A stretch of 64,000 nucleotides of DNA from Botryllus schlosseri (Eukaryota): contig CM119372.1 of the NCBI GenBank assembly GCA_051294905.1, positions 28,522,001 to 28,586,000 of the forward strand. The letters are read 5' to 3'. The notes below the pieces were generated by a model. It did no database searches. It saw nothing but the letters and a program-made list of their open reading frames with translations, and was not told the origin of the DNA. The position numbers were made by a program, and so were the translations under genes. Positions within the stretch are counted from its first letter, which is position 1. Each line of letters begins with the position of its first letter. Of this stretch, positions 8,957 through 64,000 are shown one piece after another.

Positions 8957-8984
<28 letters not shown>
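8957..8984. repeat. (AG)n microsatellite
   Basis: Perfect dinucleotide run. Confidence 0.95.
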
Positions 8985-8988
<4 letters not shown>

Positions 8989-14957: not shown

Positions 14958-14990
14958 ATTACAAGCACCCTATTGGGAGTTCGCCTATTG

Positions 14991-33631: not shown

Positions 33632-33787
33632 GTCTAGTATGTGACGAGATAGCGTGGTTGTTCAACTGTGTGGCCTATTTTATCCCGCCCACGGCCTTTA
33701 CGGAATTTGACAGTGGCCCGCGACCCGTTTTGAGTTGGCAACCCCTGGTATAAGCGGTGTGTTACAAAAGCCAGGAAGTGTTCCATG

Positions 33788-39700: not shown

Positions 39701-40087
39701 ATGGGAATAAACATGAATATGTTCTGATGACACTCGTTATGGAAAGCTAAATTCGCCTGCCCCACATCCCCAACAGAACATATTGACAATTAATATCAGC
39801 CATATACTACAGAAATACCCATTTACTCGAATGGTACCATGTCTGAAATACTGTAGTGTAGGCGAATCAGCGTCTACTGATCCTGACAGTCACCGTTTAA
39901 ACAGGTTTTTGCCGGGTCAACTGTGATCGGACACGGTTCATCCGCTACTTGCAGACTTATACGCGCGGGGGGTTGAAAAAAAAAATGGCTCGGATGCTAT
40001 GTCAGCTCAGGGCGACAATTCGAAGTTTTAAACGATACGGTTGGTACGTAAAGCCTCGTTATTCCCGCGTATTGTGAGGGTAAAACC
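33788..40087 (+). repeat. Element 1 left arm (6300 bp)
   Basis: Reverse complement of 42213-48512. Mirrored coordinates sum to 82300/82301, and mirrored ORFs differ at only a few residues. Confidence 0.97.
38216..38497 (-). CDS. Intronless death-domain-only protein (93 aa), left-arm copy
   Basis: Death-domain pattern: I..RI...W..FAR.KL.LSD.EI.......LTEQ.YQMIQLW..KNG..AT...L.E. Protein identical to the copy at 43804-44085. Confidence 0.8.
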   Translation of the reverse strand: MSKITASDIYVIMDRIDPMNWYRFAREKLELSDNEIAECQYMDCYTLTEQRYQMIQLWIRKNGRYATMNKLKELVYSCLYQIPSNSNSTVLLD

Positions 40088-40729
40088 GATGCTAAAATAA
40101 GTCGTTGGAAGGGTATACCGAAAGCCTCTTTGCACTGCGGGTGAACTTATCGCATAGCATTTCACAGCTCTGCGGCGTAATTTAACTGTCTAGCGCTGTG
40201 GACGGTCCATTTTGTCTGCTAATTGGGGGCCATAAACGACCGAGTGAAACAAATAGTTTGGGGTATATGCGGATATGATTAGGAAACAACACGCTGAATG
40301 ACTTGGGAATCTCAACTCGACAAAGGATCGTCGCGACGGGGGACCTGCAAAAACGTCCCAGACACCCTGAATCCCGCTAATGTAGGCGCTGACAGAGCAT
40401 AATTTTCCCTGCTACGGGTGTAATCTAGATAAAGCATGATTTTTTCCTATATGTCTGTAATCTATATAAAGCATAGTGCTCCCTAGATACCAGGCGTGGG
40501 GGATCACGAATCACCAAGTGTTTTTATACATTGAGAAATGATCGAGCTATTTTTATACCCGAGGTAGTCATTCAGAGACATGCAGGCTTATTCGTATAGA
40601 CTCTCTATAGTGTAGCATCTATCTGATTCGGGGATAAGTAAATGCTTTGTCCACGCTCAAACTGAGGATGCTTTGAATTTGTATCTTACTCATGTTATTA
40701 TTCACCCTCCAGGAAATATTTATAGTACG

Positions 40730-41236
40730 ATGGAGTCTAATAAATGCCGTATTTGTGCGCGGGAATTCACAAGAAAATGCAACCTCAAAAGTCATTTACT
40801 ATGGCACACTGGTGTTAAAGAACATGAATGCTTGATATGCGGACGATGGTTTCTTGCCAAACAGAACCTACATGCCCATTTGGCTGTACACTCGGGGGTG
40901 AAACCGTACGATTGTGAAGTATGTGGTCGTTTTTTTGCCCGAAAATACACCATGGAAGTCCATTTGGCCACACATACTGGCGTAGAAAGATTCGAGTGTG
41001 GGGTGTGTGGTAAGCTTCTGTCGGGGAAGAATGGGCTGAAAAAACACCTAGAAACACACTTTGGAATTGGAAAATACTCGTGTCAGGTGTGTGGGAGACT
41101 GTTTCCTCACCAATGCGGGTTAGAAACTCACCTCCAGGCTCCCGTGGGACTGAGAAAATATCCATGCGGTGTTTGCGGTAAAGCTTTTGGTTCGCAAGCA
41201 AATCTTCACAGACACGAGACTACTCCCTTTGTGTGA
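40730..41236 (+). CDS. Tandem C2H2 zinc-finger protein (168 aa from ATG 40730); four canonical fingers plus two lacking the last His
   Basis: Repeats of CxxCx3Fx5Lx2Hx3H with TGVKEHE / SGVKPYD / TGVERFE linkers. AATAAA at ~41265. Possible acceptor CCCTCCAG just upstream. Confidence 0.9.
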   Translation: MESNKCRICAREFTRKCNLKSHLLWHTGVKEHECLICGRWFLAKQNLHAHLAVHSGVKPYDCEVCGRFFARKYTMEVHLATHTGVERFECGVCGKLLSGKNGLKKHLETHFGIGKYSCQVCGRLFPHQCGLETHLQAPVGLRKYPCGVCGKAFGSQANLHRHETTPFV

Positions 41237-43559
41237 GCCGATCGTATTTCAATATGAGTGTACCAATAAATATTTTTTTCGCGTCTGTATAATTCTGTGT
41301 TGTTTGTCCGAGGCTTCTATGTTGGTGTTTTAATCATTTAGTGGGGGCAGAGATAAAAGAGTCGATATTACAATAGACACGACTCGTCCTAGTCGAGTAT
41401 TAGAAACCACCATGAAAGCAGGTCAACTTTATGTGACAGTTTTGATAACACCAATACTACAAAATACCATTTATCGTCTGACGGTGAAAGATGGGGATTT
41501 GCGAATAGGGGCTGGTTGCAATACCACACGAGTAAATACACAGAGAGAGTCTTTATTTTAAACAAACCAAAATACGTAACAAACGGCAGTGATGGTGGTA
41601 CAGAAAATATACTTTGCACAGTATTCGGTACTAGATGGGAATGATCGACAAGACCGTGAAGGTCATCTAGTCTGATCACACAGTGTAAAGAGGCTTTCGG
41701 TATACCCTTCCGAAACGTATAGTTACGGGGCATGGACGGGCGCCCGGGAGACATACCTTATTAGTAATTTTACCGTACGACTTATTTTAGCATCGGGTGA
41801 TTTTAATACCCTTTCGAAGATGTCGTGTTTTATTTGACGAAGTCAGAGGTTTGTTTCACACGGTGTGATTACGAGTGATAAATTGTAAACATAATAGCAC
41901 ACAGCAGCTGACGGGTCGCGGTGCGGGACAATAAAGACGGTTACCGTGCGAGACGTACAAGCCACCATAACTACACAGAGGTCGTCAGCAATGCCGCTAC
42001 TTTTTTCCGGGTACTCGATTCTGTCTACTCGCACTGCACCAAGTTATCAATGTGGCTAGCCTTCTTTAGGAAGCCACTTACTTTTACTAGTTTATAAAAG
42101 TTTAGCGACCCCCTCCGTATCATGCGACGATAGCTGGAGCTGTTAGGCTTGACTAGAGTTGACCACGATTCGGGCACGCATTTTCATCGGCTCGATGTGG
42201 AACTGTCTTAAAGGTTTTACCCTCACAATACGCGGGAATAACGAGGCTTTACGTACCAACCGTATCGTTTAAAACTTCGAATTGTCGCCCTGAGCTGACA
42301 TAGCATCCGAGCCATTTTTTTTTTCAACCCCCCGCGCGTATAAGTCTGCAAGTAGCGGATGAACCGTGTCCGATCACAGTTGACCCGGCAAAAACCTGTT
42401 TAAACGGTGACTGTCAGGATCAGTAGACGCTGATTCGCCTACACTACAGTATTTCAGACATGGTACCATTCGAGTAAATGGGTATTTCTGTAGTATATGG
42501 CTGATATTAATTGTCAATATGTTCTGTTGGGGATGTGGGGCAGGCGAATTTAGCTTTCCATAACGAGTGTCATCAGAACATATTCATGTTTATTCCCATG
42601 CAGATCCATTCTTGTATCGATTTGTTGAGGAAATAACGATTTCAAGGATGCAACTCTATCCGATGTACTCGATTAGGATTTGTCCATCTGTGCTATATGA
42701 GTCGTTGTGTTTCTGACTACCTCCGCTTCAACCGTTTTAGCTACTTACTTTTCGGGTGTTGGGATTTTGAAATGTGTAAAGTAGTTTGTAAATGGATTTA
42801 CCACACTCTTACGACATTATTAATCAGACACCAAAATCCTGCTCGTCTCGCTAGACAGTGGGGGTCGATCATACATAAAAACACTTGATAACCAGGCGGT
42901 ATGTTCGCCACTTTGACCGAATGTAGCACTTTTGACCTATCCGGTCTCCATTCAGATGCGACCACGTGGACCTGGTGAAATGACTGTATAATTAATGATT
43001 GATTAGGTCAATAATATTGATAATTGCGTGTATATTGCTATAAATTTTGTATCCTTTCAGTCCGACTTCCCATGTGCGGTATGTAATCAAAAGATATTGA
43101 ACTCGCCTATACACAGACTACTAAACTAAAAGAAGCGCACGATTCAAAATTGGTATTTCTTCACTGTTAAATAATAATTCGGGGTGGGATGTCAGTTGCC
43201 CTGTGGGGTCCAGATTACCACGACATAATTATTCGGTGCCAGCACTTTAGACACCCATACAAATACATTTATATCGAAGTTTACGGTCAACATAAGGGCA
43301 ATCCTTTTCGACCCATGTTTTCTCGCTGACGATCTTTTTGGCACTCTTCTATGAGGCCCATGTTGGCCCAAACTTCATATGTCTTCTTACCTCTTGGCGT
43401 GGTAATGGCCAACGCTTAGATTCCTACTCTCATAAATGATGCGTATTTTTTGTGAAGGAAGGGTGCCTAATAATCAAAACATTTATCTACATGAAATCGT
43501 GTACAGTGCGAGCAAAATTAAAAAGTTGCAGAAATTGATATATACGTATATATTCTTCA

Positions 43560-43755
43560 TTATGATTGCGTATTGCAGTTCAAGCATGTGCAGTAATGAT
43601 TACGTCATTATGATTGCGTATAGTTGATTACTCTAGTTATTACGAGAGCGGCTTTGCTTGGTTTCAGTAACGCTGAGATATGATTACGTCATTATTGCGT
43701 AAGTTGATCGCCTTATTTGTTATTGTAGTTGAACCGAGTGCAAGGCAATATATAA
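43560..43755 (+). promoter_or_regulatory. Putative promoter of the death-domain gene: clustered bZIP-type sites plus TATA (mirrored at ~38546-38741)
   Basis: GATTACGTCAT x2 (43598, 43682), ATTGCGTA x3 (43565, 43613, 43694) and TATATAA at 43749-43755, ~50 bp before ATG 43804. Confidence 0.55.
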
Positions 43756-43803
43756 CGTGTAATATTTATTACATGATTATTCGCTGTACACTATAGATCG
43801 AAT

Positions 43804-44085
43804 ATGTCCAAGATTACTGCTAGTGATATATACGTCATAATGGATCGGATTGACCCGATGAACTGGTATAGGTTTGCACGTGAAAAACTTGAGCTATCTG
43901 ACAATGAAATTGCCGAATGCCAATACATGGATTGCTATACCTTAACTGAGCAACGATATCAAATGATACAGTTATGGATTCGTAAAAATGGTCGTTACGC
44001 TACGATGAACAAACTTAAAGAATTAGTTTACAGTTGTCTGTATCAGATACCTTCGAATAGCAATTCAACTGTTCTGTTGGATTGA
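43804..44085 (+). CDS. Intronless death-domain-only protein (93 aa), right-arm copy
   Basis: Death-domain pattern as in the left copy; upstream TATA; downstream AATAAA at 44327-44332. Confidence 0.8.
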   Translation: MSKITASDIYVIMDRIDPMNWYRFAREKLELSDNEIAECQYMDCYTLTEQRYQMIQLWIRKNGRYATMNKLKELVYSCLYQIPSNSNSTVLLD

Positions 44086-47000
44086 GAGACATAACGTACT
44101 AAGAGGAAAATAATATTGTGTAGACTGGAGAATAATGAAGATGCTCTCAGAAGACTTCAATATCGGTTTATACGCAATCATATGCTCATGTATGCGAAGC
44201 TGGTATTGCTTTTACTTCGCAAATCAAAAAAAAGATTCTGATATCAAGAAAGTATGCCAAGATCTGAAAGAAGCTCTACACCTTGTTCTGGACGATTAGT
44301 TAATGTGCTTGCCCGTTATTACTTCAAATAAACTGAACATGTGTATTTAATTGTGTAAAATGTGTTATAAAGGTCAGTCTACGGAAGTGAATAGACAAGT
44401 CTGGACCTGTCTATATTACAGCATATTAGAGATAGATTGTGCAATAACCTCAAAATACGGAGAGTACTGAACCTTTGAGAAATGACCCAGCTATCCCATA
44501 CCACGGACCGTCGGCGAGTTGGCAAAACAAGCTTTATCTCGGTGACCTAGACAGAACACAGTGCTTCAGCTGCTCCAGTGTTCTCCGCAATTGGAGGTCT
44601 ACAGACGATGTATCTGAAATACACTTGACGTATCTCCCCGGATTGTTGTTTTCCTTGAGGGCTGTATTACTGGTTAGTATTTTTATGGATGATTGACAAC
44701 CGCTAGCTGTCGCTATTGTATCATCTACATATGTGTTATACAAGGGGGGCGGGCAACTCCTTCGGTCGGCGGGCCGGAGAAAATTAAGTACTTGGCATGC
44801 CGAATTGCTGAATCGATACATTATTCGCCCATTGATCCCCATATACGAGGGATAAATCGTATTTAATCAATGTATTTTACCGACCGCAATGTCACTGCAA
44901 AGCCATATCTCGCCGATAATAACGAAGACAATGTCGGTTTGAGAACAGCCTTGTTATACAGGCACCGTCGTGTCTCCTTCTCTCTAGTCAATGAACACAC
45001 CGTTCAACCCGTAAGATTTACAAATTACTGGATTGCTTTGAAACTACATTTTGGCTCGATAGATTTATGGGGGGCCTACTCTTTATCATTAGGATAGAAA
45101 GCGATTTCACGACATTTCTTTTAAAGCTACTTGAGTACTTCAAAGCTATATTCTGCTTTAGTCGAGTAGCGGACGAAGACGATTTCACACGCATTCCAAA
45201 GTACATCTTGTGAGAATGATGTACCACCACCGCCCCGGCTATTCTCGATACGACATGGGATCATTTGACTGTACTAAGGTGGCCCCGACATGGTCTAATG
45301 CGCTCGATCTTTTTTCACGGTAGTTTGGAGCGCTTTTACTATTCACATGTTTACACAGGCCCCGTATCCACGTAATAGCCTGCACAATACCATCATAGCG
45401 TCATTTTTCCGATTTGGCCACGTACCCGACTTTTGTAATCTAGGCCCACATTTTGCGTTACTCGTGGTGCTTTTTTGGAGATGTTGAGCTAACGAGGAGG
45501 ACAAACTGACAGAAAGAGAGTACATTTGGGTGAATTGGGTGACATATCTGGGAAATGGAGGACATATGCTCCCCTAAAGGAGGCCTCATGGAAACCCTAT
45601 ATTAAAATAGGAGGGTCGATAGTGATATCGAATGGATCGCATTGTGTTGCTGTCAACCCGAAAACGCGGGTTTTATCAAGCCGCAGATTGATGGCTGACA
45701 TCGATTGTGTCACGCTCGATTGAACACAGCTGATTTACGTACATTGTTGACCGGTAAAGTTATTGTCCTCGTTGTGTGATACGGTTTTTACCAATATCCT
45801 CCTCGAGGTGCCAAATCTGGTCGCACTAATAACACCTGTACAGACGAACCAAACAGAATTCCGCCAAAGGGTCGATACCAAGTCTCCTTGTACGTAAATT
45901 ATTATACAACGACACCTATATTACAGCAGAACAATCTTGTCTGGACGGAGGAGGTCACGAAACATCTCCGGACCCGGGGCAGATTTCATCAGTTTTCAGC
46001 GAAGCCAGTCTGGATGCGGCCAAATGGCCCTGAGAGTCGGATTTATGCTATATTTTACCCTCACAACATATGGAAATAACAGGACTTTACGAGCCAGCCG
46101 GATTTTTTGGACTTTGATTTAGCAACCCTATAGTCGCAGTGGATTCCGATTTCGAAATCTCCCCCTCTACTTTACACCTCACCTCAGGCTATAGATCGTA
46201 TCAGGTATGATCTGTCACAATTCATTCCCATTATTGCACCACCGAGCGCGTTTCAGCCAAATAAGGTCAGTCCACCCCGATGAAGCGAGCTACCCCGATT
46301 CGTTTCGCGGACAATTGAAATAACATCGTACTCGCAGTTACCGAGCGGAAAATACAAGGCCCGAAGGCGTGACACAGCAATTCTCTGACGGTAACACTCT
46401 GCCGAGTCAATATATCCGTAGTATGATGCTGCAAATATGCTTGGAGGTGTTGGCATAACATGTGTTGAGGATATGTTTCGATCCTCGGCACAGCAGGATG
46501 GATCACAAAACAAAATGGCGCTATGCAGTCTACGCGGCCGCATGTCATTTTCGACAGCGAGATTGATTATCGTGAATTAGGTCTTGGACAAAGCACCGAT
46601 AGCAGCGCGTCGTATAATATCCGAGCTAAGTAGTTATAGTATACTATAAACCTGATCCTCGCACCGCCAACGAGCCGTAACCACAATTCTAATACCGCAA
46701 CAATCCATACACAATAATACACCATACCGGGAGCTTTCAAAATACCAGTTGACGGGCTTCGATCGATTGTCGACACGTGATGATTTAAATCAGCCTGATT
46801 TAAACCAGAACCCTAAGTATGATGCAAATATGCTTGGAGGTATTGGCATAGCATGTGTTGAGGATATATTTACGACACATACGTGAACACAACTGACTGT
46901 CTGTAGCGAAATTTGTCGACTTCGAGCGATAGGGCGTGGCTGCCGAAGCAATAGTTCCTTAGTATGATATTGTAAATATGCGTGGAGGTGTTGCCATAAC

Positions 47001-48883
47001 AAGTGTTGAGGATATGTTACGATACACGCGAACACAACTGATTGTCTGCAGCGAAATGAGTCGCCCTCGAACGGCAAGTGCGTGGTGAGCTCGTGATCGA
47101 TATGTGTATGTTACAGACGGGCAAAGCATTAGTTCGCCAACAGTTCGATTCAAGTTGTATATCATGTACAGCATACAAAATTAATATCCCGTGGTAAATT
47201 GAATATCATTTGCAGACACCGGGATGATTACGCTTGACCAACCGTGAAGCAGTAAAAAGAACCCATCATAAATACATTGTTTTACTCGGGACTGTCTGTC
47301 CTTATGAATACGCTAGAACGAGGTATAGGTATGGAACAGCCACATTTGTTGCTTGCACCGATTACTAGGTACGTAATACCAGGGGTTAACATGTTGATGC
47401 GAGCAAAATTGAGAATCAGCTATTTGCTCAATTACTTATTGTATTTATAATGCTAATTTATTTAAGTTAATCTATGTCGGGTCGCCTAATACACATTTCT
47501 ACTACGACATTCATTCTCATTCTCGATATGACTCGAAATGGTATACATATTTATAATCGTAACAGATCGTTTCTCGTTACTGTCTGGGTCGATAACAAAG
47601 TAAAAAAGGGTTCAAGTACAACAGTACACAAGACACAGACCACAAGCGTCACTTTACATAGCCGAACGTATGGACACCTAAAACACGCACCAGGATCTCA
47701 TGGATCAGAAGAAACTATACTGACGTCACGACCGGTAATTATGACCCACCGTACACGAAATTGAATCAACCGCGGAACGACAAGTCAACCAGCTTGACGC
47801 TCTATTGTTCCCGAGCCACGAAATTGGACCACGGAATGACAGGTCAGGGCAGGCAACTATGGTCAAGCCCCGTCGTACACGACCGAAGTCAGCACCGGCA
47901 ATTATTCCCATGCCCCACCGTACATGAAATCGAGTCAACCACGGGACGACAAGTCAGCCAGGGGGTTTGACGGGGAATTATTCCCAAGACACGTCACGAA
48001 ATTGGACCACAAAACGATAGGTCAGGACGATATGTCGTCAGGCAACTATTACCAAGCCCCGTCGCGTATGACCGGAGTCAGCTGTAATTTCATGTCCTTG
48101 GCCAGAGGTCGAGCGAGGTTGTTACGAGTCCAGTATGACACAGGCTGTGGACGTCGCTTTGCCCAGCCGAGCGTATCGTCGGCGTGCATACCATTGAAAT
48201 TAAAAGCCGATCCATTGTTATTCGAGGGAAAATATAATAAATACTCAATACACAAGTCTCGTGTCCAGAGATCAAGCGAGGTAAGGAGTGGAAAAGTACA
48301 AGTAGAATGACTCCAGTACAAAGGTCAATCCAGATTCTTTGTTCGTTTTCTCTCAGTCCCCCCTATTGCCGCACAGTCAGAAGGGAATTCCCCTCGAGTA
48401 TTGCTGCAAAACTGAGAATGAGCTAATTCTTACACTGTTTATTATCTTGATAATGTTTGTTTGTTCTTTATAAATCGCGAATGGGCACCTTCCGCACATT
48501 TCTCTAACTACTTCCATGCTACAAGTCGACGTTACGGAATCCAAAATAAGAAATATCGGCCTGGTGTAAATGACCATTATAGTTGACAAACACCATGATT
48601 ACCACAAATGTCATTAGTGTTGAGTACATCGTAAATGCCGATAATGCAAGTCTTCACGCTTCGACGAACTGACGCGTAAGCTCCACCTTCGCTCGCCGCG
48701 CATACATGTGCATAGTAACACACATGCAGTCACTAAAATTTGACGTAGTAAGCAAGTAGTGGGGAATCTCAGAAGACTGGGGCCGCGGGCCATTATCATG
48801 TAAGACGGAAAACTGTCCGCGGGCCGGACAAAATCCCTTCGCGGGCCGGATCCGGCCCGCGGGCCGTATGTTGCCCGCCCCTG

Positions 48884-49545
48884 CTGTAACACCATGTCAC
48901 GAAAAATGGTTATGTCTGGGACATTATCTTGTCAGCGATCGCGGGATTTGTATAATCTATTTCACGCCTTTTTGAAGTGCAAGTTTGCGAACGCGGTTAT
49001 TGTTGGTATTGGAATCGCCGTCTACGCCGGCTCTGTGACCAATTAATTACCAAAATATTACCACGCGAGTGATTCCTAGATTTAGCTAACTATTTCACAC
49101 CTTTTTTGTTGAAAGTACTACATACCGCCGCAGCCTATACCTGAAAGTACGAATCATCGCCGCAGCCATAAGAATAACGATATATTGAAGTCGCACTCAC
49201 CGTAAACGTTAGGATTACCTCGAATCGGTCATATCTAATAATTTGAGATATACACATTGAGTAAGGATCAATCACGTGACTATTTACTTCATAATCAACA
49301 TCACATCATGACCGCAACCTATACCCACAACATTAGTTCACTACGACACAAGAATCCGTGGGCACATCATCACCACAGCCTATACCTGAAAGGGTACCAT
49401 CATCACCGCGCCCATAAGAACACATGGCACATCACCACCACAAGGGGGGTCTAAAAGGGTACCATCATCACCCCGAGTTTTCAGGCACATCACCACCCCG
49501 CCCATAAGAGCCCCTGCCACCTCCAGAGCGATCTACTATACTACT
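48884..49545 (+). mobile_element. Old element-2-family arm, terminal piece ending in ...GATCTACTATACTACT
   Basis: Similar to ~63590-63850 and to the reverse complement of ~50816-51210. Its terminus read inward, AGTAGTATAGTAGATCG, resembles the element 2 terminus AGTAGTTATATAGATCG. Confidence 0.75.
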
Positions 49546-50489
49546 TGCAATAGTCAGCTAACATATGTAAGCTCCAATCTACACTGGTATCTTACCCTCA
49601 TCATCTTCAGATATATTGGGGGATGCTTACTCCTTGCCCATCGCTGACCAGGCCAAGGTTTTCCGGGAAATATTTAGATATGGTAGCTTTTTCTAATGTC
49701 TGCTGTCCGACATAAACATATGGCAGGGGTTCTCAACCCGCGGCCCGCAGACGTATATTTTATGGCCCGCGACATCTTTCATTATAAACGCAATTACTAA
49801 TGTTCATTATAAACGCAATTACTAATGACACGGTATTGTTACAAATTAATTTAGATACTTAGCTCTTTTATCGCACCGTCTCTGTTTCGTTTGATTACTC
49901 ATTCTTGAAGACAGTGGTTCTCAAACTGGGGGCACGCGCCCTCTTTGGTGCGTGAAGCATCTGAAGGGGGCGCGAAGGTGCGGTCAACTGAAAAAAATTT
50001 CGCGCTGCGCGCAATTTATCCCTAATTCACTGTTATTTCTCTGTGTATAGTCCGAATTTCATATTTGAGAATTCTCTGATCAACGGCTATAACCTTCCAT
50101 GCCATCAAACTAGCCGTTTGTATTGCTAGCATTCTGGTTGCATTTTGTTATATGACGATAAGGGGGCACGAAATTTTTCCCTATCAAAAAGAGGGGGGGC
50201 GTGACTAAAAAATGTTTGAGAACCACTGCTTCAATGTGCTCTCGTTTCTTGATATATGCTCGACTTCAGATTGTTATTGTTTTGAATCATTATTCGGCTG
50301 GACTTTGGTTCAAGAGAATCCCGCTTCTTAGTAGGCCTTTTAAAGAGTGTTTGACTCACTGCGAACGGTTGTTGAGATTGCCGACGACGTTACAGACGCA
50401 TCGTTTAAAATTGCTTCGAACATCGCTAAACCCAAGAAATCTGATATAGAAGGTGTGATTTCAATAAAATCGTAACATACTTTGCGAAT

Positions 50490-50815
50490 ATTTGCTGTTT
50501 CCGGAACTTAGCAGCAAGGACAACATCACCAGACAAATTTCGAAGATGCAATCGTCTGATTCAATCCTGACCAGACGAGTAACATCAATATCAGTCAATC
50601 TTTTATCGCCTGTTCTGAAACACGTTGCCGCGTAGACTACTTTTACGCAGCCTTGGATGAATCCACCGACATTGTATAACTAATTATCTGGTTGAATTTC
50701 ATCAGAGTGGACATATATGCAGAGAAATACTGGCTGGGCAAACGTGGGGAGGGGACCAGCGAAAAATATCAACTTAACAAAGCTGACTTCTGTAACTATT
50801 GGTACAGTGCCCTAG
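50490..50815 (+). pseudogene. Decayed hAT (Buster/Charlie/GTF2IRD2-like) transposase fragment, cut by element 2
   Basis: Translations LFPELSSKDNITRQISKMQSSDSILTRRVTSISVNL, LDESTDI (first catalytic motif) and KLTSVTIGTVP (degenerate TTDGAP). A hAT-type end CAGGGGTTCTCAACC lies upstream at ~49723. Confidence 0.65.
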
Positions 50816-50852
50816 AGTAGTTATATAGATCGGTGACACATTGGCGTTGTGG

Positions 50853-51100
50853 CTTATGGCGGGGTGGTGAGCGGCTGGAAAACCGGGGGTGGTGAGCGGC
50901 TCCTTATACCTTATGGCGGGGTGGTGAGCGGCTATTGCGTCTTATGGCGGGGGTCGTGAGCGGCTCTTATTTCTTATGGCGGGGGTCGTGAGCGGCTGGA
51001 AAACCTGGGGGTGGTGAGCGGCTTTTATGTCTTATGGCGGGGGTCGTGAGCGGCTATTGTGTCTTATGACGGGGCGACATGCGGCTATTGCGTCTTATGG
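50853..51100 (+). repeat. Subterminal GC-rich tandem repeat (~25-32-bp units, core GGT[GC]GTGAGCGGCT)
   Basis: About 8 copies of CTTATGGCGGGG(G)T[GC]GTGAGCGGCT and variants. Confidence 0.9.
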
Positions 51101-51333
51101 ATGTGGTCGTGATTCGTACTTTCGGGTATATACATCTCTCGACTGGTGTTGAATATGTATCGAGTAAATAGTCATGTGAATGAATCTTTGTTAATGTGTA
51201 TATCGTAAATTATTATATATGATGTAGTTTAGTCGTGACAAATGACCGACCGTGTTCTAAGTCTTTCCTCTCTATTGATTGCTAGCTGAATAATACTTCA
51301 GATCGGGTTTTTCGCACCTTGTATACCGCTGTT

Positions 51334-54300
51334 TCGCACCTACAGAATAGTCTGCTGTTCACAGTCGTGACTTCACCGCGATAGCACAATATTCGCAGGT
51401 AATATTTCCGCAATAAGTTTGTCACAGAGCCGTCGCACAATATCCACGTTCACAAACTAACACTCCAAAAAGGTGTGAAATATTGGTAAAATCCCACGAT
51501 CGCTCACAAGATAATACCTAAGACATAACCATCGCTTGCGACTCTTTGTTACGTACATGCCGATCGTTGACAATGTAATATTTTGGTAATTGGTTTGCCA
51601 CAGAGCCGGCGTAGACGGTGATTCAAATATCAACAATAGCCGCGTTCACAAACCAACACTACAAAAACGGGTGAAATAGGTTACAAATCCCACGATCGCT
51701 CACAAGATAACACCAAAGACATCACCATTTCTCGCGTCTTGTCATTACATACATCCCAATCGCTACAGTGTAATGTGTCGATGGTTGTTACTATCAAGTA
51801 ATAAGTAATGAATAACAGTACCAGCGCAGACCGTGATTCGAAAACCAACAATTTGACACTTGCCCGCGGTCGCTATATGTTTCATGCCTCTCGAATAGTG
51901 GCTGACTTTAGTTGCGTGATAAGATCCATGAAAATATTCAATCAATGCGTTAGTTTGTCAACTTGAAATGTAACTCACTACACAGATCAAGTTGAATCGT
52001 ATTTGAATGTATTGACTCGACCCAACTCAAATCCTTTGACAAATCCTATTAACGCAATCTGTTGAATCGAACGTAACCTGAATATTACTGACACCAACAT
52101 TCACCCACATCGGATCATTCACACATTCCACGCCGCTGTTTTAACAGTTATAGAATCAATACCAACTATCTCTAACCCGATAATATTCAATCATTTTGGT
52201 AATTTAACAACTGTAAACCCATTCGCGGATGTACTAAAGGTAAATCCAGATAATCCAAAATGAAATATTTGGACTTTGACATAGTCTGAATTGAAATAGA
52301 TTGACAAACATGACTAACAACTTTCAACCCAGTCATATTTAGAGATTATACACACATTGATTCGAAACAAGTAATGAAACATTACAACTCTATTCGCGAT
52401 CCGGCTTTTCAATTGCCAAAGCGACATTTTAACAACTTATCATACTCAAAAGAATTATTCACAACATTAACAAGTGTTAAATATCTAGTTTTCACTTACT
52501 TGATTATATCACAACAACTCACAAACTTGAATTAATTCATCCTGGTTGTATTCATATGACCGATAATTTTTTATTCAACTGTAAAGGTCGTTACTATTCT
52601 GAAGACAAAGTATTTACTAGTCGGTGCATATACGACTTGACATAAACATATTATATTTTGAGTATACGAGATTTGAATGTCTGAACAATAACTGAGAAAT
52701 AATTTATCACAATAAAATCCGTATATTACAGCGTAAAAGATGTTTGAATGTCAGCAACTCTGTACGGTCATAGTTACTACCACTAATTTACCCGACCAAC
52801 TCGTCATGATCATTCCTGAAATCAACACAAATATGACCACTGACTTGAGTTAACCACAAAACAGCATCAAGTTTTAAATCCACTTGTAGCTTACGGATTA
52901 TTTGAATGCTGGTTATGTTTTGTTGTAATTGAGTTAACGAAATAGTATTACGTCTCGACATCTTACCATCTTACCATATTCAAAGAATCAACCACGAAAA
53001 CATTGTCAAGTAAATCCGTTAACCGACCAACTCAAACAGTATCAATACGAAAAACAAACAAACATACACGAATCCATACCATCACTAAAACCTAAAATCC
53101 ATAACAAACTCGGTTGTATTCATATCCCAACGCATCTTTTTTATTCAACTTGAAAAGTCGTCACTATTCTGTAAGATAGAGGAATTACTATGCGGTATAT
53201 TTTATAAGATAAAAGTAATTACTTCTCGGTGCCCGCGACTTGAGATTAACATAATATGTTTGAGTATGCGAGATTTGAAAGTCTGCCCAACATATTGAGA
53301 ATTCATTTCTTACAATCGAACGCAGGTGTTATATTGAAAATTATCATGATGTAAACATAAGGATTGACACATTGATTTGACATATGTAATAGTTGATCAT
53401 GACTTGACTATTAAATTATTTGCGGTAATTAGACCCGGCGTTGTGGTAAAGATTATTGTGACAGCAACAAACTTTTCAGTACCATTGTTATTAACATATT
53501 GAGTTGTAAACTATGTGTGTCTAAAATGTTCTCGATTGGAAAATTATTCAGCCTTGGTACAAACCACGCAGAGTATTGTGGATATCAGGAAATATTTTAC
53601 AAATGTCTGCATTAAACAAGACTAAAGATGAAACAACAATTTCCTTTGTTGAACAATAACCGGGGCAATACTTTATTGTCGGTGAGAATTGAAACACTTT
53701 CGCGCATTACCTGGTGTCAAGATATCACACTAGGTGAATTGACATACCACCATTTGATTAATGCTTAATCCGTTCGCATCATTTCACACTCACTTTGATC
53801 ATTACAAAAGTAAATTGGAATATGTTTGCTAGGCACCACCTATTCAACTATACTTGAGTAATACAGAAACCTCTCAGCATTAATAAAATCGAAATGTGCG
53901 CTACACTGAAATCTACAAAAATGTGTTTGTATTGCTGTTCGTAGTAGCGATATCGATTTGAACCTCCATCATCTAACCAAACTACTGAGAGTCGTTGTCA
54001 ATTTACATGACGTTCACTGATTACATACTAGAACTATTTGTGCAGCGCACACGATCAGAGAAATTGGACATTTTTCCATTGCCATTCGTCAAAGTAAATG
54101 TCGTCACAATAATCAGTCACTAAAAGACCATATACTTGTATGTGATTGAATCGCCGACAATTAACTCGGTAAATCAAACCTCTGAGAAATTTCACTCAGT
54201 CATTGGATAGGAAACAGCGTCGCTTAATCGGTGTGAGTCGTTTTTTCTAAATACTAATCATATCTGTCCAGCCAAGAACAATTTTCACTCACTTGGGTAA

Positions 54301-57198
54301 CGAAACCAGTGTCCAATATCAATACAAGATATTTTCGTCACACAAAAATAATCAACTTCACTCGACATTCCCGTACTACGAAACTGTACAAAGGTTACAT
54401 GCTTTTGTATGACATGGAATCAATAGCGATCGAAGTAACCGTATTGGAGATAACTTTTAAACAAACACACTCTACGTGGTTAACATTCTCGTCGATTCTA
54501 TTGTGATTAATGTATACTTCATGTGATCTGGATTCATTTCGATATGGCTAAACATTCAACCTCGACGGATACGAATTGTCACACACTCAAGTAATATCAT
54601 ACCAAATAGTTATTTACAAGACACAGAAATTTGTTTTGGTCGTTTCGACTTTATTACTGGAGATACTCATCACTTCGCTTAATACAATCTAGATTTAAAC
54701 TCCATCGAACCTTTGGTGTCTATCGTTTTGCTGGATACGAATTATGTTAGTCTAAGAGTACACAATTTTCACTATCTTGGGTTATGAACTCAGTGTGTTA
54801 GCGATCATTCAATATTTTGTGGTATCAACTAGCTACTTCGTAGGATACGAATGATCATCCTCACAACTCTTACAAAAGTACGAAGGATATTTACATCACA
54901 CAAAGTAATCGACTTTACTCGATATCCTCACACTACGAAACTGAATGGTTATGGTTTGACTCTACAAACTGTTCTGATGTCACAAGAACTTTTTCATACG
55001 AATGGTTACGTATCTAAATATTCAAATAATCCAACACACGACTATAGCACTTACTGAAATATCATAGTTCTTGTAACAAGTTGTATAAGTATAATGTTTA
55101 TCGTAAGTCCTACATAGCCATGATATCCGTCCGAGTTTGACTTTTAGAAACCATTATACCGACATCGCGACATCTTTCAAAATTAAAACCACGGTGACTG
55201 CTTCAGAGACCTACCAATGAAATTGCAGTATTACAGTTACTTCCACAAAAGAGTATGTATTCGACTTACTTACCACAAATCTAACGCACAAAACAATTTA
55301 CTTTACTAACGAGAAGCACCGAGCCTCACATCAAAACAACTAGAAAGTGGAACTATATTAAAAAACGTCGCTAACCTTTGTGCACCAGCTGTAAATCACA
55401 CAAGCAACATGTTTCAAGATTCTGGTTATTGAAAAACGTTAAAGTGTTTCTCCTGCACCAAGTCGTTATGTTGACGAAAGTGTATATTGTAATACCATGA
55501 TCGATTTGCATTCGTTGGTCACAAACTGTCACTACTCCAAAAAATTATTTTTCACTCAAACACAAAAGCATACTTGTCGCCAATCGTTTTCATCAAGCAC
55601 GAGTTCAAGAAACCTGCTACGACATGAATTGTTATTTTGATGTTGTGTAAATAGGTAATAATTTATTTTAGTAACACTACATCAACATCATCGAGTTGTG
55701 CGAATAGATTTACATGTGGTTTTAATCGAAGTACACAGCACGGTCTAATGTAGATTCATCTCTATTGTACAGCAACTCGGTAATCGAAATGCATTAACAT
55801 TTAAACAACGATCTTGGTTCGTCACGCGAAAAATATCTTTACTGTCGCAACACTCTGATACTCTGCACAAGATGTGTAAATCCTTTTCACACTCATAATA
55901 ATACACTAACGGGATACCGATGTCAAGCAACAACGTTTAACAACATCACTGACACTGAACATACGATACCTACCCAAGTAAAAATATCATTTTCACCAGG
56001 AGGTCAGTCGTTACTTGTGTACAATTAACATTTTCCCTTGGGAGTTTAGCGTTACCCGAGTAACAAACCCATTTTCACTTGGAAATATATGTTTTCCCTC
56101 AACAACAAACGTTTTTCACTTGGAAATATATTTTTTCCCTGGGTAACAAACCCCTTTTCACTTGGAAATATATTTTTGCCCTGGATAACAAACCTTTTTC
56201 ACTTGGAAATATATTTTTTCTCTTGGTAACAAACCTTTTTCACTTGGAAATATATTTTTTCTCTGGGTAACAAACCTTTTTCACTTGGGAATATATTTTT
56301 TCCCCGATCAACAAACCTTTTTCACTTGGAAATATATTTTTTCCCCGAGCAACAAACCATTTTCACTGAGCAACAAACCCTTTTCTCCCCAGGCAACAAA
56401 CCCTTTTCGTTTGGAAAACTATCATTTACCTGAGTACCAATACCATTTTCGTTTTGAAAACTGACAACTACACCGGTCAATTTGATATTTTTTGTATATT
56501 GTTACAGCAGATAGTGACAAAATATACACCAACAACGACTCCGATACATTTGTGTAATCAAATATTCACTTGCTCTGATGCATCCCATCAAAATCATTGG
56601 TTACTCACATACAATAACAATGAGCTGTTGTACACCGAAATGCACGCTTTGGAAAATTGGACAATAGGCTGCGATAGTTCTGCGATGTCCGGGTTCGTGC
56701 TTTGGATTTTCCAGAGTCAAAATGTCTGAATAAAACACCTCCTCGACGATGGTTGGTATGTGGATAACGGTGTTCGGAAAACGGTTGGATTTATGTCACC
56801 CATCGCGATAACAATTCCTGGTCGAGTTTTCCTCCGGCATGTTTACTATATTGTGTCTTTATTGGTCAATGTATGTCTCGACATTCAGTTTGAAATCGGA
56901 AATGATAAAGTACGTAACCGGATCCGGATATCAACTCTGAATCGATAAACCAATGAACAATATTCAAAGTAAACATGTTACACCTGTGTTTCCACGAAAA
57001 AATACCATCCAGACATACGTCGCGCTTGTTTGCCCACACCAGTATACGCGCAAATGGAGGTGTGTGACATTGCATGCAATGTGTTGGTATACAAACATCG
57101 ATCCACAGACATTATCATAGCCGGTAATTTTGATGTAGATCGAATGTCACCCGATAACAATGTCATACCAATAAGCCACATTGCAATGACTCTGAGTC
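51334..57198 (+). repeat. Element 2 left arm (portion whose mirror is visible)
   Basis: Reverse complement of 58135-64000. Confidence 0.97.
56062..56460 (+). repeat. 41-bp minisatellite, ~8 copies plus degenerate tail
   Basis: Unit AACAAACCTTTTTCACTTGGAAATATATTTTTTCCCTGGGT; CACTTGG recurs at 56076, 56117, 56159, 56200, 56241, 56282, 56323. Confidence 0.95.
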
Positions 57199-58134
57199 CG
57201 CGCTATTACATCGATATTTCGACACCGTTCACTGATTTACTCGATGGTGTTATCGTGTTGCAACATTACAAGATAGTCATGACCCTATCTCCGGACAGAC
57301 GTCCCAGATCAATTGGATACATAGGTCAATATCCATCGTGTTGTCGAGACCGAAGTTTTCCGCTGAGACTGCAGCGTTTCACCAATGTGAACTATCGAAG
57401 TACGGTGCTCGAAATGATTGTGATCAGTCTTTCAGTCACGATGCAAGGATGTCGCTACTCCAGCATAACGACTCCAGATAAATATCGTGAACAGTGATTC
57501 TGAAAATCTCGGACTGATACTGTGATCCAATAAGGTATGTTTCTGTGGAATGAAGACTGCAATCGTACACCACAATAGAACACTACCTCGCGATTTCACA
57601 CACAATCATAAAACACATCATCGTAAGGGTCCAGTTCGTCCGGTAACATTTCGAAACGGTCATCGCCACAAGAGATCGGGTTGGTCTCGTCGTATCGGTA
57701 GCATTTTGACACTGCCATCACCACAAGGCTATTGACGTCGTTTCGGTTGGTCATGTCAATCCGTTTTACAATTTACCGTTTTTCAACTCCCCGCACCATA
57801 CTGTTACGACACAGACAAGAAGCATCGGTGGAAATAATAAAACACGGAAGGCACACTTTGGTGGTATTTGACATGGATTTTACACCAGACGAACCTCACA
57901 TTCGAGCGATGTATTGGAATGACGCCTGTATTATCGATGTCGAAGGAACAGAAATGTATCGATTTATTGGTTTCGTACATATCCAACAAAAACCAGGGTA
58001 TATGATTGTGCATGGTTCGCATATTCGAATGTGAACGCCCAATTGGTATATGTTGTATAGTTCACTTTCACCATCGTGCGAATAACCCATGTTACGGGTC
58101 CATGTTTGTGTGTCTGTATGTCATGCTTCAGATT

Positions 58135-61100
58135 GACTCAGAGTCATTGCAATGTGGCTTATTGGTATGACATTGTTATCGGGTGACATTCGATCTACAT
58201 CAAAATTACCGGCTATGATAATGTCTGTGGATCGATGTTTGTATACCAACACATTGCACGCAATGTCACACACCTCCATTTGCGCGTATACTGGTGTGGG
58301 CAAACAAGCGCGACGTATGTCTGGATGGTATTTTTTCGTGGAAACACAGGTGTAACATGTTTACTTTGAATATTGTTCATTGGTTTATCGATTCAGAGTT
58401 GATATCCGGATCCGGTTACGTACTTTATCATTTCCGATTTCAAACTGAATGTCGAGACATACATTGACCAATAAAGACACAATATAGTAAACATGCCGGA
58501 GGAAAACTCGACCAGGAATTGTTATCGCGATGGGTGACATAAATCCAACCGTTTTCCGAACACCGTTATCCACATACCAACCATCGTCGAGGAGGTGTTT
58601 TATTCAGACATTTTGACTCTGGAAAATCCAAAGCACGAACCCGGACATCGCAGAACTATCGCAGCCTATTGTCCAATTTTCCAAAGCGTGCATTTCGGTG
58701 TACAACAGCTCATTGTTATTGTATGTGAGTAACCAATGATTTTGATGGGATGCATCAGAGCAAGTGAATATTTGATTACACAAATGTATCGGAGTCGTTG
58801 TTGGTGTATATTTTGTCACTATCTGCTGTAACAATATACAAAAAATATCAAATTGACCGGTGTAGTTGTCAGTTTTCAAAACGAAAATGGTATTGGTACT
58901 CAGGTAAATGATAGTTTTCCAAACGAAAAGGGTTTGTTGCCTGGGGAGAAAAGGGTTTGTTGCTCAGTGAAAATGGTTTGTTGCTCGGGGAAAAAATATA
59001 TTTCCAAGTGAAAAAGGTTTGTTGATCGGGGAAAAAAATATATTCCCAAGTGAAAAAGGTTTGTTACCCAGAGAAAAAATATATTTCCAAGTGAAAAAGG
59101 TTTGTTACCAAGAGAAAAAATATATTTCCAAGTGAAAAAGGTTTGTTATCCAGGGCAAAAATATATTTCCAAGTGAAAAGGGGTTTGTTACCCAGGGAAA
59201 AAATATATTTCCAAGTGAAAAACGTTTGTTGTTGAGGGAAAACATATATTTCCAAGTGAAAATGGGTTTGTTACTCGGGTAACGCTAAACTCCCAAGGGA
59301 AAATGTTAATTGTACACAAGTAACGACTGACCTCCTGGTGAAAATGATATTTTTACTTGGGTAGGTATCGTATGTTCAGTGTCAGTGATGTTGTTAAACG
59401 TTGTTGCTTGACATCGGTATCCCGTTAGTGTATTATTATGAGTGTGAAAAGGATTTACACATCTTGTGCAGAGTATCAGAGTGTTGCGACAGTAAAGATA
59501 TTTTTCGCGTGACGAACCAAGATCGTTGTTTAAATGTTAATGCATTTCGATTACCGAGTTGCTGTACAATAGAGATGAATCTACATTAGACCGTGCTGTG
59601 TACTTCGATTAAAACCACATGTAAATCTATTCGCACAACTCGTTGATGTTGATGTAGTGTTACTAAAATAAATTATTACCTATTTACACAACATCAAAAT
59701 AACAATTCATGTCGTAGCAGGTTTCTTGAACTCGTGCTTGATGAAAACGATTGGCGACAAGTATGCTTTTGTGTTTGAGTGAAAAATAATTTTTTGGAGT
59801 AGTGACAGTTTGTGACCAACGAATGCAAATCGATCATGGTATTACAATATACACTTTCGTCAACATAACGACTTGGTGCAGGAGAAACACTTTAACGTTT
59901 TTCAATAACCAGAATCTTGAAACATGTTGCTTGTGTGATTTACAGCTGGTGCACAAAGGTTAGCGACGTTTTTTAATATAGTTCCACTTTCTAGTTGTTT
60001 TGATGTGAGGCTCGGTGCTTCTCGTTAGTAAAGTAAATTGTTTTGTGCGTTAGATTTGTGGTAAGTAAGTCGAATACATACTCTTTTGTGGAAGTAACTG
60101 TAATACTGCAATTTCATTGGTAGGTCTCTGAAGCAGTCACCGTGGTTTTAATTTTGAAAGATGTCGCGATGTCGGTATAATGGTTTCTAAAAGTCAAACT
60201 CGGACGGATATCATGGCTATGTAGGACTTACGATAAACATTATACTTATACAACTTGTTACAAGAACTATGATATTTCAGTAAGTGCTATAGTCGTGTGT
60301 TGGATTATTTGAATATTTAGATACGTAACCATTCGTATGAAAAAGTTCTTGTGACATCAGAACAGTTTGTAGAGTCAAACCATAACCATTCAGTTTCGTA
60401 GTGTGAGGATATCGAGTAAAGTCGATTACTTTGTGTGATGTAAATATCCTTCGTACTTTTGTAAGAGTTGTGAGGATGATCATTCGTATCCTACGAAGTA
60501 GCTAGTTGATACCACAAAATATTGAATGATCGCTAACACACTGAGTTCATAACCCAAGATAGTGAAAATTGTGTACTCTTAGACTAACATAATTCGTATC
60601 CAGCAAAACGATAGACACCAAAGGTTCGATGGAGTTTAAATCTAGATTGTATCAAGCGAAGTGATGAGTATCTCCAGTAATAAAGTCGAAACGACCAAAA
60701 CAAATTTCTGTGTCTTGTAAATAACTATTTGGTATGATATTACTTGAGTGTGTGACAATTCGTATCCGTCGAGGTTGAATGTTTAGCCATATCGAAATGA
60801 ATCCAGATCACATGAAGTATACATTAATCACAATAGAATCGACGAGAATGTTAACCACGTAGAGTGTGTTTGTTTAAAAGTTATCTCCAATACGGTTACT
60901 TCGATCGCTATTGATTCCATGTCATACAAAAGCATGTAACCTTTGTACAGTTTCGTAGTACGGGAATGTCGAGTGAAGTTGATTATTTTTGTGTGACGAA
61001 AATATCTTGTATTGATATTGGACACTGGTTTCGTTACCCAAGTGAGTGAAAATTGTTCTTGGCTGGACAGATATGATTAGTATTTAGAAAAAACGACTCA

Positions 61101-64000
61101 CACCGATTAAGCGACGCTGTTTCCTATCCAATGACTGAGTGAAATTTCTCAGAGGTTTGATTTACCGAGTTAATTGTCGGCGATTCAATCACATACAAGT
61201 ATATGGTCTTTTAGTGACTGATTATTGTGACGACATTTACTTTGACGAATGGCAATGGAAAAATGTCCAATTTCTCTGATCGTGTGCGCTGCACAAATAG
61301 TTCTAGTATGTAATCAGTGAACGTCATGTAAATTGACAACGACTCTCAGTAGTTTGGTTAGATGATGGAGGTTCAAATCGATATCGCTACTACGAACAGC
61401 AATACAAACACATTTTTGTAGATTTCAGTGTAGCGCACATTTCGATTTTATTAATGCTGAGAGGTTTCTGTATTACTCAAGTATAGTTGAATAGGTGGTG
61501 CCTAGCAAACATATTCCAATTTACTTTTGTAATGATCAAAGTGAGTGTGAAATGATGCGAACGGATTAAGCATTAATCAAATGGTGGTATGTCAATTCAC
61601 CTAGTGTGATATCTTGACACCAGGTAATGCGCGAAAGTGTTTCAATTCTCACCGACAATAAAGTATTGCCCCGGTTATTGTTCAACAAAGGAAATTGTTG
61701 TTTCATCTTTAGTCTTGTTTAATGCAGACATTTGTAAAATATTTCCTGATATCCACAATACTCTGCGTGGTTTGTACCAAGGCTGAATAATTTTCCAATC
61801 GAGAACATTTTAGACACACATAGTTTACAACTCAATATGTTAATAACAATGGTACTGAAAAGTTTGTTGCTGTCACAATAATCTTTACCACAACGCCGGG
61901 TCTAATTACCGCAAATAATTTAATAGTCAAGTCATGATCAACTATTACATATGTCAAATCAATGTGTCAATCCTTATGTTTACATCATGATAATTTTCAA
62001 TATAACACCTGCGTTCGATTGTAAGAAATGAATTCTCAATATGTTGGGCAGACTTTCAAATCTCGCATACTCAAACATATTATGTTAATCTCAAGTCGCG
62101 GGCACCGAGAAGTAATTACTTTTATCTTATAAAATATACCGCATAGTAATTCCTCTATCTTACAGAATAGTGACGACTTTTCAAGTTGAATAAAAAAGAT
62201 GCGTTGGGATATGAATACAACCGAGTTTGTTATGGATTTTAGGTTTTAGTGATGGTATGGATTCGTGTATGTTTGTTTGTTTTTCGTATTGATACTGTTT
62301 GAGTTGGTCGGTTAACGGATTTACTTGACAATGTTTTCGTGGTTGATTCTTTGAATATGGTAAGATGGTAAGATGTCGAGACGTAATACTATTTCGTTAA
62401 CTCAATTACAACAAAACATAACCAGCATTCAAATAATCCGTAAGCTACAAGTGGATTTAAAACTTGATGCTGTTTTGTGGTTAACTCAAGTCAGTGGTCA
62501 TATTTGTGTTGATTTCAGGAATGATCATGACGAGTTGGTCGGGTAAATTAGTGGTAGTAACTATGACCGTACAGAGTTGCTGACATTCAAACATCTTTTA
62601 CGCTGTAATATACGGATTTTATTGTGATAAATTATTTCTCAGTTATTGTTCAGACATTCAAATCTCGTATACTCAAAATATAATATGTTTATGTCAAGTC
62701 GTATATGCACCGACTAGTAAATACTTTGTCTTCAGAATAGTAACGACCTTTACAGTTGAATAAAAAATTATCGGTCATATGAATACAACCAGGATGAATT
62801 AATTCAAGTTTGTGAGTTGTTGTGATATAATCAAGTAAGTGAAAACTAGATATTTAACACTTGTTAATGTTGTGAATAATTCTTTTGAGTATGATAAGTT
62901 GTTAAAATGTCGCTTTGGCAATTGAAAAGCCGGATCGCGAATAGAGTTGTAATGTTTCATTACTTGTTTCGAATCAATGTGTGTATAATCTCTAAATATG
63001 ACTGGGTTGAAAGTTGTTAGTCATGTTTGTCAATCTATTTCAATTCAGACTATGTCAAAGTCCAAATATTTCATTTTGGATTATCTGGATTTACCTTTAG
63101 TACATCCGCGAATGGGTTTACAGTTGGTAAATTACCAAAATGATTGAATATTATCGGGTTAGAGATAGTTGGTATTGATTCTATAACTGTTAAAACAGCG
63201 GCGTGGAATGTGTGAATGATCCGATGTGGGTGAATGTTGGTGTCAGTAATATTCAGGTTACGTTCGATTCAACAGATTGCGTTAATAGGATTTGTCAAAG
63301 GATTTGAGTTGGGTCGAGTCAATACATTCAAATACGATTCAACTTGATCTGTGTAGTGAGTTACATTTCAAGTTGACAAACTAACGCATTGATTGAATAT
63401 TTTCATGGATCTTATCACGCAACTAAAGTCAGCCACTATTCGAGAGGCATGAAACATATAGCGACCGCGGGCAAGTGTCAAATTGTTGGTTTTCGAATCA
63501 CGGTCTGCGCTGGTACTGTTATTCATTACTTATTACTTGATAGTAACAACCATCGACACATTACACTGTAGCGATTGGGATGTATGTAATGACAAGACGC
63601 GAGAAATGGTGATGTCTTTGGTGTTATCTTGTGAGCGATCGTGGGATTTGTAACCTATTTCACCCGTTTTTGTAGTGTTGGTTTGTGAACGCGGCTATTG
63701 TTGATATTTGAATCACCGTCTACGCCGGCTCTGTGGCAAACCAATTACCAAAATATTACATTGTCAACGATCGGCATGTATGTAACAAAGAGTCGCAAGC
63801 GATGGTTATGTCTTAGGTATTATCTTGTGAGCGATCGTGGGATTTTACCAATATTTCACACCTTTTTGGAGTGTTAGTTTGTGAACGTGGATATTGTGCG
63901 ACGGCTCTGTGACAAACTTATTGCGGAAATATTACCTGCGAATATTGTGCTATCGCGGTGAAGTCACGACTGTGAACAGCAGACTATTCTGTAGGTGCGA
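58135..64000 (-). repeat. Element 2 right arm (truncated by the window end)
   Basis: Reverse complement of 51334-57198. Confidence 0.97.
58874..59272 (-). repeat. 41-bp minisatellite, mirror copy
   Basis: Reverse complement of 56062-56460. Confidence 0.95.

Follow-up and report, generated by a model that had tools for sequence, protein, structure and literature searches.

Polinton/Maverick elements are regarded as viruses that replicate with a protein-primed polymerase. They are defined by a protein-primed family B polymerase together with a retrovirus-like integrase (PMC5499653). For the vertebrate Mavericks that it covers, PMC8097293 gives end motifs of (AGT)2//(ACT)2 or (AG)3//(CT)3, perfect 6-bp duplications, terminal repeats of 46-1,447 bp and a constrained size of ~17 kb +/-10%, and it assigns the end repeats an expected role in jumping back during protein-primed replication. 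The protein-primed replication cycle itself is presented as a proposed model in PMC4046053, in which the terminal repeats of a single-stranded intermediate pair into a panhandle that acts as an origin, and PMC8097293 describes Polinton virus particles as not observed. Here we describe element 2 (W2), a palindrome of 13,703 bp that spans positions 50816 to 64518 of a 64,000-nucleotide window from the Botryllus schlosseri genome (G000:C2:28522001-28586000; assembly of 495.5 Mb in 219 contigs) and extends past the window's end. A second palindrome, element 1 (W1), lies upstream in the same window. We consider it highly probable that element 2 is a young, helper-dependent, satellite-like Polinton/Maverick palindrome, inserted and copied by a helper, whose arms are re-matched in each round of propagation and whose length is constrained.

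Element 2 shares with autonomous Polintons, including the C1a and C8w1 types of this genome, the (AGT)2/(ACT)2 ends, the 6-bp duplication, and a size that falls inside the 13-25 kb given by PMC8097293 and PMC10748475. The longest Polinton repeats that we found in print are the ~2-kb repeats described for butterfly polintons, which duplicate the hexon and adenain genes (bioRxiv 10.1101/2025.02.07.637071). Unlike autonomous Polintons, element 2 lacks polymerase, integrase, ATPase, protease and capsid genes, and its inverted repeat measures 6.4 kb, or 93% of the element, against the 100-1,500 bp that published accounts generally report.

Nematode Mavericks that carry cargo genes, reportedly described by Widen et al. 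in 2023, are similar to the palindromes here in that Maverick ends surround non-viral sequence (a 93-residue open reading frame (ORF), a C2H2 zinc-finger ORF, and decaying BIR and Death fragments), but they are gene-bearing elements with extra cargo, while the elements here are gene-less palindromes. Protein-primed replicons also produce snap-back or palindromic defective genomes, as in the incomplete particles of adenovirus and the palindromic or hairpin deletion forms of the yeast linear killer plasmid. Like these, the palindromes here are helper-dependent and of near-helper length, and they may repeat one genome end in inverted orientation; in element 1 and a copy termed C8a the outer arms are colinear with one helper end. 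They differ in being chromosomally integrated and heritable, in their hundreds of copies, in carrying a conserved gene in the loop, and in that most of each arm is not helper sequence; they are known here from integrated copies. Our literature search, which left Repbase and Dfam outside its scope, found no description of giant-palindrome or such non-autonomous Polinton derivatives.

Boundaries and insertion site of element 2

The original prediction, made from the letters of the window, had element 2 opening at 50816 with AGTAGTTA, 2.3 kb past element 1, and gave it subterminal tandem repeats, mirrored arms and a 936-bp spacer. All of these are present (Table 1): ccctag directly precedes the first base of the end motif, and element 1 ends 2,303 bp upstream, at 48512. 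Within the window, the inverted arm segments pair 51334-56305 with 59029-64000 and 56296-57198 with 58135-59037, with 936 nt in between. The 41-bp tandem array near the arm/centre border occupies 56060-56367 and has its mirror copy at 58966-59274. Over their whole length (element positions 1-6383 versus 13703-7320) the arms are 99.86% identical; the "100%" printed for individual arm segments is a rounded value. By symmetry the right end had been expected at 64518, followed by a second CCCTAG, and both expectations hold to the base: in the locus L002 the right junction reads ...gatctatataactact/ccctag/gcatgaat, with the last element base, L002:2085, corresponding to window position 64518. Among the 30 ORFs of at least 60 amino acids in element 2, none matched a Pfam family and no transposase of any kind was found. 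Rfam (gathering score) and tRNA scans of window positions 33000-64000 also returned nothing.

The region that holds element 1 together with the element 2 flank occurs twice on one contig, ~95-111 kb apart and at ~99.8% identity (window 33675-50815; G000:C2:28650500-28684318, L032-L036), and could reflect either segmental duplication in the recent past or a haplotype left uncollapsed in the assembly. In the duplicate ~111 kb downstream, element 2 is absent: the flank, identical at 936 of 936 bases, carries on in L032 across one CCCTAG and into what succeeds element 2 in L002. The duplicate thus holds an exact paralogous empty site, and element 2 is a young insertion, recent because that site has one CCCTAG within an identical flank. 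The duplicate keeps element 1 at the same site, with ~0.18% of bases different.

The original prediction also had element 2 breaking a hAT transposase remnant. The interruption stands, since the flank is unbroken at the empty paralogous site, and the hAT label is not confirmed, with no Pfam family detected in the ORFs of the flank at E values up to 10. The flank encodes the peptide ALDESTDIV, which we take to be typical of hAT-like transposases; no tool supported the label. The flank itself (49880-50815) is a very abundant repeat, with 6,980 first-look candidates in the genome and 40 scored copies at 94-100% identity.

The second copy of the duplicated region carries a 16.7-kb insertion in the left arm of element 1 (L033-L035, joined positions 2757-19425). 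This insertion has the ends CAGACATGGGG...CCCCATGTCTG, which are not Maverick ends, and a 9-10-bp duplication (GGTATCGAC). It encloses another palindrome with 6.2-kb arms at 99.86% identity, and has no match to the helper proteins.

A probable Polinton helper and two palindrome families

A gene-bearing element of the same genome, C1a, has the same terminal repeat as element 2. C1a is 15,784 bp long, has a 6-bp duplication (ACTATC) and a 551-bp terminal repeat, is not palindromic, and carries all its long frames on one strand. These include an integrase (rve, E 2.9e-16; chromodomain, E 1.4e-8), an A32-like ATPase frame with weak matches, and a 432-residue frame that matches double-jelly-roll-like capsid clusters in the ESM Atlas (0.98). 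The C-terminal part of a 1,300-residue polymerase frame matches PF03175 (E 1.7e-5, 24.3 bits versus a cut-off of 25.8), and its N-terminal 951 residues match ESM Atlas clusters, 94% of whose members carry PF03175 (0.96). Neither part of the polymerase had a match in sequence searches of the PDB, and NCBIfam returned for the integrase only weak IS481/IS3-like matches. The polymerase has 48 long matches across the genome at 78-100% identity (335 first-look candidates), most of them within open frames of 1,200-1,300 amino acids. C1a is an autonomous Polinton/Maverick.

Positions 1-552 of W2 are 95.3% identical to the C1a left end (1-547), and 96.9% identity to the C1a right end extends out to W2 position 582, only 30 bp beyond the repeat. 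In C8a, a member of the same family, the arms are colinear with the C1a right end for 1,351 bp at 95.6%. A tblastn search with the C1a proteins found no match in element 2. Because the helper genes are absent by Pfam and tblastn while the ends and the duplication match, element 2 is a non-autonomous Polinton/Maverick derivative and not an autonomous member.

Very long inverted repeats, tandem blocks and little or no coding sequence also characterize foldback transposons as they have been described (Drosophila FB, Galileo and Tetris, and Tm1 of root-knot nematodes), and element 2 fits those descriptions in combining long inverted repeats with tandem repeats both near its ends and further inside. 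One might therefore read element 2 as a cut-and-paste transposon of the foldback type, from another superfamily (MULE/FB, P/Galileo or hAT), with ends that merely look Maverick-like. We judge this extremely improbable. The match to the terminal repeat of a gene-bearing Polinton covers 552 bp at 95-97% identity, not just 6-8 bases, which refutes a foldback superfamily identity. Foldback elements have far shorter repeats than 6 kb, belong to the MULE and P superfamilies, have other ends, and make 7- or 9-bp duplications, while the 6-bp duplication is found in 11 of the 12 elements here with two readable ends and element 2 encodes no transposase.

A whole-genome search with a 24-base end pattern (up to 2 mismatches) found 728 forward and 696 reverse places, compared with 1 and 1 for a control pattern; this corresponds to about 700 end pairs, or elements, in the genome. 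With a 701-bp left-end probe, paired inverted matches 8.6-27 kb apart appeared on many contigs. Among the first 100 places listed of the 1,424 end matches, a sample in which helpers and satellites are mixed, 43 plus/minus pairs had a median span of 13.9 kb: 25 measured 12.9-14.3 kb, nine 15-18.1 kb and four were longer, none was below 10 kb, and 14 places were unpaired. If most of the ~700 pairs are ~13.7 kb, the family would by extrapolation account for roughly 2% of the 495.5-Mb assembly.

We retrieved ten copies. Eight have arms of 4.1-6.4 kb that are 98.1-99.96% identical and flank a unique 0.66-3.7-kb centre; in C9a, which belongs to these eight, the right arm lacks its outer part. The other two are C17a, described below, and the non-palindromic C1a. 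Counting 12 family copies, retrieved and in the window, 10 (C17a included) have 5.4-6.5-kb arms at 98.1-99.96%, and eight of the nine intact palindromic copies are 12.8-13.8 kb in total length. The copy C11c (G000:C11:8423268-8439465, L027+L028) is 15.7 kb long and has the least similar arms (98.05%), with a further 646-bp inverted repeat inside its 3.7-kb centre.

The ends read in 14 elements bear out the original claim of a recurrent class, as opposed to a one-off rearrangement. Eleven have a perfect 6-bp direct duplication and one matches at 5 of 6 bases; the other two are C9a, truncated on the right, and C17a, whose flanks are inverted. All two-ended elements begin and end AGTAGT...ACTACT except at the right end of C8b (G000:C8:19912054-19926342, L015+L016), which is one ACT unit short and reads ...CTATACT instead of ...CTATACTACT, with its duplication TACGGT intact. 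This single case fits the formation of ends by sliding along a repeated trinucleotide.

C17a (G000:C17:313138-326560, L023+L024) is palindromic through its centre, with no unique spacer: positions 1-13021 fall in a single alignment at 99.72%. The 200 bp on its two sides likewise form an inverted repeat, and similar matches occur on two small contigs; C17a is either a larger true palindrome or an assembly artefact. Long-read assemblers can produce false palindromes, and C17a, palindromic into its flanks, is the sort of structure expected if the elements were assembly artefacts or one-off inverted duplications. For the family as a whole, this explanation is refuted and its probability is practically nil: independent copies are surrounded by different flanking sequences and bounded by 6-bp duplications of their own, the empty site of element 2 is exact, and sequence peculiar to one lineage appears in mirror image in its two arms.

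The presence of hundreds of young insertions, scattered through the genome and bearing target duplications, also argues against a host-used hairpin locus, in which arm transcripts would form long double-stranded RNA and feed small-RNA silencing of Polintons. What speaks for such a locus is the near-perfect long inverted repeat, which includes 552 bp of helper end, and nothing else does; only 4% of element 2 matches the helper. We therefore find a hairpin locus very improbable.

Element 1 has, as originally claimed, no sequence in common with element 2 apart from the end motif. Their terminal repeats are shared with two different clades of autonomous Polintons, one for each element. The counterpart of element 1 is C8w1, a gene-bearing Polinton of 16,371 bp with a 342-bp repeat, whose proteins are 24-51% identical to those of C1a and whose DNA is unrelated to C1a. 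W1 positions 1-337 match the C8w1 repeat at 87.5%, and W1 1732-2035 matches C8w1 916-1192 at 84% in the same order, so that both blocks are colinear with the C8w1 left end. The end region of element 1 recurs in the genome as inverted pairs 13.7-21 kb apart, and C8w1 is one such pair. Another W1-type palindrome besides element 1, C5, is 14,533 bp long, with the duplication CATATT and 6.04-kb arms at 99.49%, and contains the same centre as element 1 in opposite orientation. Because elements 1 and 2 share terminal repeats with different Polinton clades, sequence comparison indicates that the palindromic architecture arose at least twice.

The arms of element 1 contain two exon-like frames, one matching BIR (E 8.8e-7; 37608-37853, minus strand, mirrored at 44448-44693) and one matching the Death domain (E 7.5e-11; 38219-38524, minus strand, mirrored at 43777-44082). 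C5 has a broken version of the BIR frame and lacks the Death frame; these pieces are decaying filler, not cargo in use. On either side of element 1, fragments at window 31905-32314 and 48900-49303 are 78-84% identical to element 2 arm positions 329-1357 in minus orientation, and element 1 seems to have landed in or beside an older W2-family member.

Concerted arms and a narrow length range

Between lineages of the W2 family the arms are 70-95% identical and mosaic: the lineages differ by replaced blocks on the kilobase scale, and the unrelated blocks occur at mirrored positions in both arms. We aligned the left and right arms of each of two copies and counted differences that are concerted, present in both arms of a copy, or private to one arm. 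In five homologous blocks from transposed lineages we found 1086 concerted and 17 private differences, plus 3 others. In contrast, the two resident duplicates of element 1, neither of which has moved by transposition relative to the other, show 2 concerted and 23 private changes, and of six ancestral arm differences that predate the split of these duplicates, 0 have been resolved in either one. The contrast between transposed lineages and resident duplicates is strong (Fisher p = 5e-35). Over 4,123 aligned columns, W2 and its closest relative, C9a, are separated by 3 changes that are concerted and 17 that are private. Because concerted differences dominate the transposed lineages and not the resident duplicates, we infer from these alignments that the arms are probably identical at insertion and drift afterwards, and that re-matching would be tied to propagation rather than to residence in a chromosome.

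These counts bear directly on a simpler account, in which the palindromes are integrase-mobilised deletion derivatives with no replication or packaging of their own, their arms are kept alike by conversion in place, as in sex-chromosome palindromes, and their size descends from one founder. The arm/centre borders and the centre are indeed inherited across lineages, as expected of a deletion derivative, and the two concerted changes in resident element 1, at positions 5150 and 6189 near the centre, could be conversion events. The 23 private changes and all 6 ancestral differences that persist in the same duplicates argue against conversion in place, as does the preponderance of concerted differences in the transposed lineages. 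Size could likewise be inherited, since the W2 family may stem from a single ~13.7-kb founder; yet a length of 12.8-13.8 kb has been kept in eight of nine intact copies through mirrored kilobase-scale block replacements, and a second family from another clade is built alike. Overall we regard this account as unlikely.

We favour instead a helper-dependent cycle, whose proposed steps are as follows. A helper integrase would insert element 2, which would explain the 6-bp duplication, and a helper protein-primed polymerase would copy it, which would explain the repeated trinucleotide at the ends. The cycle would pass through a self-folding single strand, the panhandle stage, at which one arm could template or correct the other; this is the likeliest reason for the re-matching. 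With 6.4-kb repeats the panhandle would be nearly the whole molecule, and repair or re-copying within this duplex would make every change concerted.

The narrow length range may reflect a separate step. W2-type satellites cluster at ~13.7 kb, compared with 15.8 kb for C1a, and the two W1-type palindromes measure 14.5 and 14.7 kb, compared with 16.4 kb for C8w1. Lengths at ~87-90% of the helper's would be accounted for by a length requirement, most simply capsid packaging, a suggestion based on two clades and a partial sample.

The centre of the palindrome carries a small conserved frame. Centres of W2-family copies are homologous at 74-92%, and in the four closest lineages the centre is 88-92% identical versus 75-90% for the arms, which are mosaic. 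A frame of ~108 codons is present in all four of these centres. A protein search with this frame gave 150 scored matches among 1,201 candidates, at 82-100% identity, and all 150 are open over 105-173 amino acids; under random change of 8-12%, only 24-38% of copies would be expected to stay open, a figure to be read with the caveat that copies are not independent. For the 93-residue protein counted from the first methionine, a search of 5.8 billion proteins found only two relatives, at 90% and 60% identity and 91-93 amino acids long, with 54 invariant columns. It matched no known family in Pfam or NCBIfam, and a metagenome scan found no relatives. Its predicted structure (mean predicted local distance difference test score, 36) is unusable, and the counts by codon position on four centres (12/15/20) are too weak to use.

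A stronger version of the helper-dependent reading is that the palindromes are true polintovirus satellites, copied by the helper polymerase through a fold-back single strand and packaged in helper capsids, with the 93-residue centre gene providing the satellite's own function. We offer this version tentatively, as a possibility that we think rather improbable.

Several observations weigh against a helper-dependent, re-matching satellite as we have set it out. The Pfam score of the C1a polymerase is just below the curated cut-off. The arms past 582 bp (1,351 bp in C8a) are unrelated to the helper, so that simple copy-back of one helper end leaves the bulk of the arm unexplained. The arm/centre borders coincide in four lineages, and the palindrome is therefore inherited and not remade at a random turn-around in each cycle; we rejected random copy-back in every cycle as the sole mechanism on this ground. 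The test of change in place concerns one locus over a short time span (~0.18% divergence), and sizes were taken from the first 100 of 1,424 places, helpers and satellites together. Finally, no extrachromosomal, protein-linked or packaged form turned up; a search of public runs gave 20 rows with part of the left junction, and the short Logan contigs from four runs span neither 48512/48513 nor 50815/50816 and say nothing about presence, absence or free ends.

Feature positions and implications

Table 1. Positions of the palindromes and their parts in the 64,000-nucleotide window.
Feature	Position	Strand	Remark
Left copy of target-site duplication, CCCTAG	50810..50815		Right copy at 64519-64524 (L002:2086-2091), past the window end
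Element 2, left arm (6,383 bp)	50816..57198	+	Opens with (AGT)2 end motif AGTAGTTA; 99.86% identical to right arm
Outer 552 bp, terminal inverted repeat of autonomous Polinton C1a	50816..51367	+	95.3% identical to C1a left end
Subterminal tandem repeats	50853..51112	+	32-bp unit ~6 times, 121-bp super-unit; also in C1a terminal repeat
Inner tandem array, 41-bp (and 21-23-bp)	56060..56408	+	Near arm/centre border; mirrored at 58925-59279; also in other family copies
Unique central region (936 bp)	57199..58134	+	74-92% homology across W2-family lineages
Small conserved open frame, 93 amino acids from first Met, plus stop	57753..58034	+	Stop-to-stop frame 57702-58031
Element 2, right arm	58135..64000	-	Cut by window end; real end at 64518, ...ATATAACTACT
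Element 1 (14,725 bp)	33788..48512		Arms 33788-40087 / 42213-48512 (6,300 bp, 99.70%); 2,125-bp centre
Element 1 duplication, TCCATG	33782-33787 and 48513-48518		Both flanks read
C2H2 zinc-finger open frame, 206 amino acids stop-to-stop	40616..41233	+	In element 1 centre; open and 93.7% identical in C5

Elsewhere in the window, at 23427-23759 on the plus strand, lies a remnant of a piggyBac-type transposase (PF13843, E 1.2e-17) that is unrelated to the palindromes.

Elements of this kind are a hazard for assembly and annotation, as standard repeat finders and palindrome filters may discard them. For Polinton biology, ~700 helper-dependent palindromes of tight length, with arms that appear to change together only on spread, would offer a sequence-level read-out of a fold-back stage and a length constraint. 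If the palindromes are indeed satellites copied by a helper polymerase and packaged in helper capsids, their concerted arms and their length at ~87-90% of the helper's would be genomic footprints of the proposed replication and encapsidation steps of Polintons.

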